A DNA stretch of 15,907 nucleotides from Escherichia coli. GTDB lineage: Bacteria; Pseudomonadota; Gammaproteobacteria; Enterobacterales; Enterobacteriaceae. The position numbers and the translations under genes were made by a program. This document shows, piece after piece, positions 3,712 to 3,734 of this stretch. The DNA lies in NCBI RefSeq assembly GCF_003334335.1, contig NZ_QOWQ01000058.1; one strand, written 5' to 3'. Every line of letters starts with the position of its first letter. Position 1 is the first letter of the stretch. The notes beneath the pieces are model-generated. The model made no database searches and was not told the origin of the DNA. It saw only the letters and a program-made list of their open reading frames with translations.

Positions 3712-3734
3712 GTAAAAAAACCGCCTCAGCGGTT
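3712..3734 (-). terminator. Intrinsic-terminator-like hairpin plus U-run between the GT stop and the tape measure start
   Basis: Minus strand reads AACCGC-TGAG-GCGGTT followed by TTTTT: 6-bp stem, tetraloop, T-run. Probably an attenuator or RNA-stability element within the late operon. Confidence 0.35.

Follow-up and report, generated by a model that had tools for sequence, protein, structure and literature searches.

What is a hairpin with the form of an intrinsic terminator doing in the middle of a phage late operon, directly upstream of the gene for the tail tape measure protein? The question arises in a 15,907-nt stretch of Escherichia coli DNA (contig NZ_QOWQ01000058.1; the whole stretch is referred to here as the window), where an initial annotation had noticed a stem-loop and U-run between gene T and the tape measure gene. 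It had supposed that the element is read through under late antitermination, and that it might protect the 3′ end of the upstream message or reduce tape measure expression relative to the tube and chaperone genes. What that annotation overlooked is the main context, as the junction is the classic insertion site for morons, and in relatives many unrelated inserts end downstream at this hairpin. In our judgment the element is probably an intrinsic terminator at an empty cargo slot, one that would stop unmodified polymerase in the lysogen and that Q-modified polymerase would pass.

Gene content of the late region

The window is a lambdoid late region of a prophage resembling Shiga toxin phages, and the minus strand encodes all of its relevant genes. 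Their order runs from Rz-like spanin pieces, an HNH endonuclease, the small and large terminase, a protease-major-capsid fusion and the portal, through connector genes, the tail terminator, the major tail protein, G, a T-frame ORF and the tape measure, to an M-like minor tail protein. The genes around the hairpin are as follows:

4428-5144, minus strand: major tail protein gene
4048-4422, minus strand: G tail assembly chaperone gene (phrog_344)
3743-4024, minus strand: T-frame ORF, the C-terminal part of the G-T chaperone (phrog_337; positions 133-224 of phrog_14766)
453-3695, minus strand: tail tape measure protein gene, 1080 aa (TIGR01541 and TIGR02675), directly downstream of the hairpin

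The gene identities of the initial annotation were borne out by these family matches, and also by the G-T fusion family and a slippery heptamer. The heptamer, A_AAA_AAG (4057-4051), stands at the end of G, immediately before TAG (4050-4048), and is the expected site of the -1 frameshift for the G-T fusion. Because this heptamer is present in G and a 224-aa PHROG family spans both G and T, we consider that the G-T frameshift arrangement holds. The RefSeq names at E. coli copies of the region are major tail subunit, tail assembly chaperone, tail assembly protein T and tape-measure protein. Over 3400-4500, identity is 99.5% with Stx1a-converting phages and 95-99% with about 90 further records of Stx and lambdoid phages. 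Of 5426 complete E. coli genomes, 1246 contain the tail module, at 2912 places in total.

A hairpin and U-tract upstream of the tape measure gene

The junction between T and the tape measure gene is composed of the following features:

3696-3742, minus strand: intergenic gap from T to the tape measure, 47 nt, holding an 8-nt spacer, the hairpin, the U-tract and the tape measure leader
3729-3734, minus strand: 5′ arm AACCGC, which can be extended to GAGAACCGC (3737-3729) by pairing with the U-run
3725-3728, minus strand: tetraloop UGAG (TGAG in the DNA), which in relatives is UGUG, UGCG, UUUG, UUCG or UUAG
3719-3724, minus strand: 3′ arm GCGGTT
3714-3720, minus strand: U-tract of seven T, the first two of which are shared with the stem

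On the minus strand the hairpin reads AACCGC-UGAG-GCGGUU (3734-3719) and runs into seven U (3720-3714). The bases AC (3713-3712) stand just beyond the element, and the tape measure leader has a Shine-Dalgarno sequence, GGAG, at 3707-3704. Written out in full, the minus-strand junction is TGA-ATGATGAG-AACCGC-TGAG-GCGGTT-TTTTT-ACGCCCGGAGAAAGGTGA-ATG. With the T stop (TGA) at 3745-3743 and the tape measure ATG at 3695-3693, the gap comes to 47 nt, so that the coordinates agree with the initial annotation on its length, on its place before the tape measure and on its orientation, which is that of the late genes. On the plus strand the hairpin is not terminator-like, because there the stem is followed by TTCTCATC and not by a T-run.

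The stem comprises six Watson-Crick pairs, four of them G-C, and reaches 9 bp when extended by A-U pairs. Calculation of the folding energy, which the initial annotation had proposed as a check, supported a local structure: a stem-loop was predicted at -7.1 kcal/mol for the 6-bp core and at -10.3 kcal/mol with the upstream GAGAA paired to the U-run (9 bp), and a 50-nt fold of the gap gave -14.6 kcal/mol (z = -2.27), which 4 of 200 shuffles equalled. That support did not extend to the wider region, as the fold of the 131-nt context was unremarkable (z = +0.32) and the signal is confined to the local hairpin. In several properties the element agrees with an intrinsic terminator: its G-C-rich stem and its loop are within the usual sizes (about 5-14 bp and 3-8 nt), its U-tract, directly 3′ of the stem, exceeds the usual minimum of about six, and it is intergenic, on the strand (minus) that encodes all the late genes. 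As a terminator the window variant is weak (-7 to -10 kcal/mol). An approximate d'Aubenton-Carafa-type score placed it near the threshold and placed relatives higher, and the hairpin energies of relatives range from -8 to -17 kcal/mol.

A generic promoter/terminator scan did not list the hairpin between T and the tape measure, likely because its stem was extended into the T-run by A-U or G-U pairs, leaving too few T, and the same lax scan gave no overall enrichment (15 found, 14.1 expected). We replaced it by a stricter one, in which a stem without mismatches, 5 bp or longer and containing three or more G-C pairs, had to abut six or more T. On the minus strand this returned two sites, the present hairpin (3734-3714) and another at 5181-5167, whereas 200 dinucleotide shuffles averaged 0.015 sites. 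Both sites are intergenic. The hairpin with its U-run is real and is improbable by chance; sequence, strict scan and RNA folding all uphold the canonical minus-strand stem-loop and U-run that had originally been described.

Similar elements are found in other gaps of the same operon:

5161-5181, minus strand: hairpin CCCGC-CGCGT-GCGGG followed by six T, in the 66-nt gap from the tail-terminator gene to the major tail gene
11429-11450, minus strand: hairpin GAACTGC-TCCG-GCGGTTT (one G-U pair), with the stem-loop portion at 11450-11433, followed by seven T, in the 63-nt gap from the large terminase to the protease-capsid fusion

Each of the three late-operon gaps of 47-66 nt thus holds a co-oriented terminator-like hairpin. 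The position of the hairpin at 5181-5167 is conserved in relatives that have other stems there (GACCCGC-TACG-GCGGGTC and GACCGCC-GCT-GGCGGTC), and the GenBank record of HK75 lists six 'terminator' features in the late operon, including one before the tape measure gene and one before the major tail gene.

Conservation of the hairpin among related loci

For comparison we assembled 172 loci of the same tape measure family from phage records and two IMG/VR scans, in which the N-terminal 140 aa of the tape measure are 61-100% identical to the window. A hairpin followed by five or more T, with its end some 16-25 nt ahead of the tape measure start, was present in 151 of the 172, as compared with frequencies of 0.4% in shuffled upstream segments and 1.8% in other 70-nt windows of the same loci. 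The stems at this position are diverse, with 41 stem-loop variants and 23 different arm cores among the related loci, and a U-run of at least six is kept in nearly all of the variants. The window type, AACCGC-TGAG-GCGGTT, is found at 38 loci, whereas the stem-loop of F349 and BP-4795 is AAAACCTGC-TGTG-GCAGGTTTT. Further stem-loops are AACCGC-TTCG-GCGGTT (611R1), GCCCGC-GGCT-GCGGGC (mEp390 type) and ACCCGCT-ATCA-AGCGGGT (HK75), and other relatives have AAGCTCGC-TGTGT-GCGAGCTT or AAAAAGCCC-GTTAAT-GGGCTTTTT.

Comparison of CCGC/GCGG in the window with CCTGC/GCAGG in F349 and BP-4795 reveals a paired T/A insertion within flanks that are otherwise about 95% identical. Elsewhere, a C-to-U change leaves a G-U pair (locus L054) and an A-U pair stands in place of G-C (locus L137). 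In the group colinear with the window (38 loci and 10 haplotypes, from IMG/VR and phage records) every hairpin is intact and only one of the 12 stem sites varies, which is too little variation for a test of selection. A covariation test in the cargo-less mEp390 group found one double change, a result equalled in 163 of 500 shuffles and so not significant, and for this reason the case for selection rests on the conservation of position across many different stems. A joint MAFFT alignment of all the cargo-less junctions put the 3′ arms of different stem lengths out of register and was therefore not used for pair counts.

Several more distant lineages with compact junctions (22-46 nt) carry no hairpin. 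As these lineages and the lambda-type modules do without it, the hairpin must be dispensable for tail production.

The junction as a cargo slot

In 44 of the related loci the T stop and the tape measure start are separated by an additional ORF (77-174 aa), and in 42 of these the hairpin is at its downstream end. The hairpin is also present in 100 of 116 cargo-less loci. These represent four separate lineages (the window, F349, 611R1 and mEp390 types) and 32 unique sequences, and the 16 cargo-less loci that have no hairpin are all from more distant lineages. The inserts are mutually unrelated, comprising HK97-gp15-like membrane proteins, several lipoproteins and a zinc-ribbon membrane protein; at least ten unrelated small ORFs occupy the slot (loci L014-L174), assigned to eight PHROG families or to none, and many have lipoprotein signal sequences. 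The only cargo family with a known function is the HK97-gp15-like superinfection-exclusion family.

In two loci (L039 and L053) a lipoprotein gene of about 490 nt is placed exactly between the T stop and the same hairpin as in the insert-less F349 type. The promoter scan gave no plus-strand promoter for the L039 insert, and consequently the inserts cannot all be called independent transcription units. Some terminators seem to travel with their cargo, since three loci (L070, L074 and L079) have different hairpins upstream of the same tape measure leader. Tai defence genes were also considered as occupants of the junction and were rejected, as they are found mostly upstream of the packaging module instead.

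The window has two of the features of a moron locus, the site between the chaperone genes and the tape measure and the terminator-like hairpin at its downstream end. The extra protein-coding gene is absent: there is no inserted ORF in the 47-nt gap, and we therefore regard the slot as empty. A consensus scan of the minus strand found no sigma-70-like site near 3743-4100, nor upstream within the tail genes.

One locus (L094; E. coli FORC_042, NZ_CP025318.1) has an IS200C element at 1090-1805, exactly inside the T-run that follows the homologous hairpin, that is, between the terminator and the ribosome-binding site of the tape measure gene. This single case suggests that the hairpin and T-run are also an insertion target at the DNA level.

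Comparison with known systems

Gene 15 of HK97, located at the T-to-tape-measure junction, is the founding 'moron', and morons are described as carrying their own promoter and terminator, hence their expression from a repressed prophage (PMC3594210). HK75 (HM173637.1) has a terminator at 8398-8422 that is likewise directly upstream of the tape measure, about 15-25 nt before its start, and that resembles the window hairpin in its short G-C stem, small loop, seven to eight T and orientation. The tape measure proteins are homologous, with the N-terminal 140 aa of the HK75 protein 81% identical to the window. The differences are in the stems, which are ACCCGCT/AGCGGGT in HK75 and AACCGC/GCGGTT in the window, and in what precedes them, as the HK75/HK97 terminator follows the gp15 superinfection-exclusion gene with its own promoter (PMC3594210), whereas the window has neither cargo nor promoter. 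The window hairpin is the ortholog, in a tail module of the Stx-phage type, of a terminator for which HK97-like phages already have an annotation, and as such an ordinary and previously recognised kind of phage punctuation.

The lambda-type modules of lambda and Gifsy-1 share with the window the V-G-T-H gene order and the production of G-T by frameshifting. Gifsy-1 has neither the gap nor the hairpin, because its T (17701-18039) and H (14634-17729) overlap; the element is specific to the HK97-like tail module as opposed to the lambda type.

In Stx phages pR′ is constitutively active and transcription from it is stopped at tR′, and the late genes require Q (PMC7547250); Q-lambda prevents formation of the terminator hairpin (PMC9388147). 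The window hairpin is the same kind of signal as in this lambdoid pR′/tR′/Q system, a terminator in the late path for which bypass by Q-modified polymerase would be expected (PMC7547250, PMC9388147). However, tR′ directly follows pR′ and is the decisive regulatory terminator, whereas the window hairpin lies many kb downstream, inside the structural genes, and both Q and pR′ are outside the window. Multiple internal terminators combined with antitermination have been described as a remedy for spurious transcription in long operons, and the logic proposed here is that of conjugation operons of the pLS20 type, with internal terminators acting against spurious or leaky transcription and the antiterminated complex reading through all of them (PMC8955417). 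Those operons differ from the window in host group, antitermination machinery and element type, and so the likeness is an analogy of design and not homology.

Proposed function and alternative explanations

The motif, its non-random occurrence, the conservation of its position with turnover of the stem, and its association with cargo were all observed directly. From them we infer termination at the site, read-through by Q-modified polymerase and an insulating role. Unmodified polymerase transcribing the G-C stem and the U-tract would allow the hairpin to form in the exit channel, and the transcript would be released. Such polymerase could have leaked past tR′ or started spuriously or, in relatives, could have started at an inserted moron's promoter. 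In the lysogen, termination would prevent expression of the tape measure and of the tail genes beyond it, while in lytic growth Q-modified polymerase would pass the site and the tail genes would still be made. The read-through under late antitermination supposed by the initial annotation is reasonable to expect here, because the closest relatives are Stx-converting lambdoid phages, in which the late genes are Q-dependent (PMC7547250). In relatives the same element would close cassettes of unrelated cargo between T and the hairpin, and in the window that slot stands empty. Counting against this reading are the weakness of the window variant, the lineages that do without a hairpin, and the fact that no promoter was predicted upstream that would supply a cargo-less prophage with transcripts to be stopped.

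The functions originally suggested for the hairpin belong to the lytic phase, when partial termination or processing at this site would guard the V-G-T message from 3′ exonucleases and yield less tape measure than tube and chaperones. Virions contain many tube subunits and few copies of the tape measure, and stable 3′ hairpins are known to hinder exonucleases. The hairpin is indeed at the 3′ end of the V-G-T block, a position that fits virion stoichiometry. Against this, a U-run is needed for termination and is unnecessary for a simple block to exonucleases, yet the U-tract is strictly conserved. Furthermore, the equivalent conserved hairpin at 5181-5167 is upstream of the major tail gene, where a step-down would reduce the very tail protein that is most abundant, and there are six such sites across the HK75 late operon; a step-down in dosage therefore cannot be the general logic of these elements. 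Q-modified polymerase is also expected to ignore terminators with short stems (PMC9388147), and overall we consider a lytic mRNA element unlikely, with a minor chance of being correct. It is more doubtful still that the hairpin is a neutral scar, a terminator left after deletion of a moron gene and its promoter and now functionless. The occurrence of the same hairpin with and without cargo in close relatives, with a clean indel just 5′ of the stem, is consistent with such an origin, as are the weakness of the window variant and a level of variation within its group that is too low to show selection. But four separate cargo-less lineages (100 loci) keep intact hairpins with full U-runs, the changes that we observed preserve pairing, and none of the 38 loci colinear with the window in IMG/VR and phage records has lost the hairpin. 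The tail module itself is widespread in E. coli (2912 places).

We would be surprised if the element proved to act in translation initiation, with the U-rich tract as a landing site for the ribosome (S1) and the hairpin uncoupling initiation on the tape measure from translation of T. The stem always ends 16-25 nt before the start and the U-run is directly 5′ of the conserved GGAG, as such a role would predict, but any short gap that has to accommodate both a terminator and a ribosome-binding site would trivially show this spacing. Moreover, lineages without the hairpin express the same gene, and the same architecture is found after unrelated cargo genes. Hardly credible, finally, is the proposal that the hairpin terminates a small RNA that binds Hfq, comes from the 3′ end of the T message and has an isrK-like architecture. 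A hairpin with a U7 3′ end is the usual Hfq-binding module, and RF01394 isrK, an Hfq-binding sRNA of Salmonella Gifsy-1, resembles the window in having a 3′ hairpin (CCGC...GCGG) and U-run. An Rfam search returned nothing at the gathering threshold; below it, the full isrK model matched 3714-3781 on the minus strand with 27.1 bits (E = 3.6e-4 in a 301-nt search). This score is far under the gathering threshold of 50, the best relative reached 15.7 bits (E = 9.7), and none of the F349, 611R1, mEp390 and HK75 types had a match. The upstream 'helices' fall in coding sequence and no promoter is predicted there. The true isrK, at 34240-34316 of Gifsy-1, adjoins Q (34349-35026) and is not at the T/H junction, where T and H overlap at about 17.7 kb. 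With a sub-threshold match, its absence in relatives and a different genomic context, the isrK identity was rejected. Two other kinds of RNA were considered as matches and rejected, the Pas sRNAs, which are near Q and the lysis genes, and the EcOnc anti-sRNAs, which are at the pR′ moron site; the prophage sRNA literature does not cover the T-to-tape-measure site.

To return to the terminator reading, the presence of the terminator in cargo-less phages gives the slot the look of a dock that is maintained for morons, and it is this point that is modestly new. Tentatively, the hairpin may be a resident and selected 'docking terminator', such that genes arriving between T and the hairpin would be insulated automatically, the junction would be a hot spot for swapping of cargo, and the window would represent an empty dock. 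Docking of this kind would amount to a terminator-first model of moron acquisition, in which the T-run might also be a DNA target, as in the IS200C case, and we put this forward only as a possibility.

Taken by itself, one more hairpin resembling an intrinsic terminator in a lambdoid late operon is of little weight. The result is of practical use for annotation of a very common E. coli prophage tail module, and it makes the T-to-tape-measure junction a predictable place to seek prophage cargo, for example lipoproteins or superinfection-exclusion proteins. Should selection prove to maintain the hairpin in cargo-less phages, this would bear on how structural genes are silenced in lysogens and also on why morons gather at a few fixed sites.

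Other features of the window

Of the window's sigma-70-like promoter matches, the best (TTCACA-16-TATAAT, 11 of 12 positions) is at 14898-14925 on the plus strand, inside the Rz-like spanin region and antisense to the late genes, and no plus-strand ORF of at least 50 aa lies close after it. The portal gene is present as two minus-strand ORFs in different frames (7898-9262 and 6678-7901) that overlap by ATGA at 7901-7898 and match positions 1-451 and 455-859, respectively, of the 859-aa portal family phrog_2271. The split may reflect a mutation that shifts the frame or a sequencing error close to a GAAAA run, or the two-part arrangement may be real; the homologous portal gene is annotated as a pseudogene in the F349 phage record. 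The protease-major-capsid fusion (9474-11411, minus strand) encodes 645 aa of family phrog_617, with protease families matching its N-terminus. The layout of the head module is unusual in that the capsid fusion comes before the portal and an HNH endonuclease ORF (13987-14352, minus strand) is upstream of the small terminase gene.
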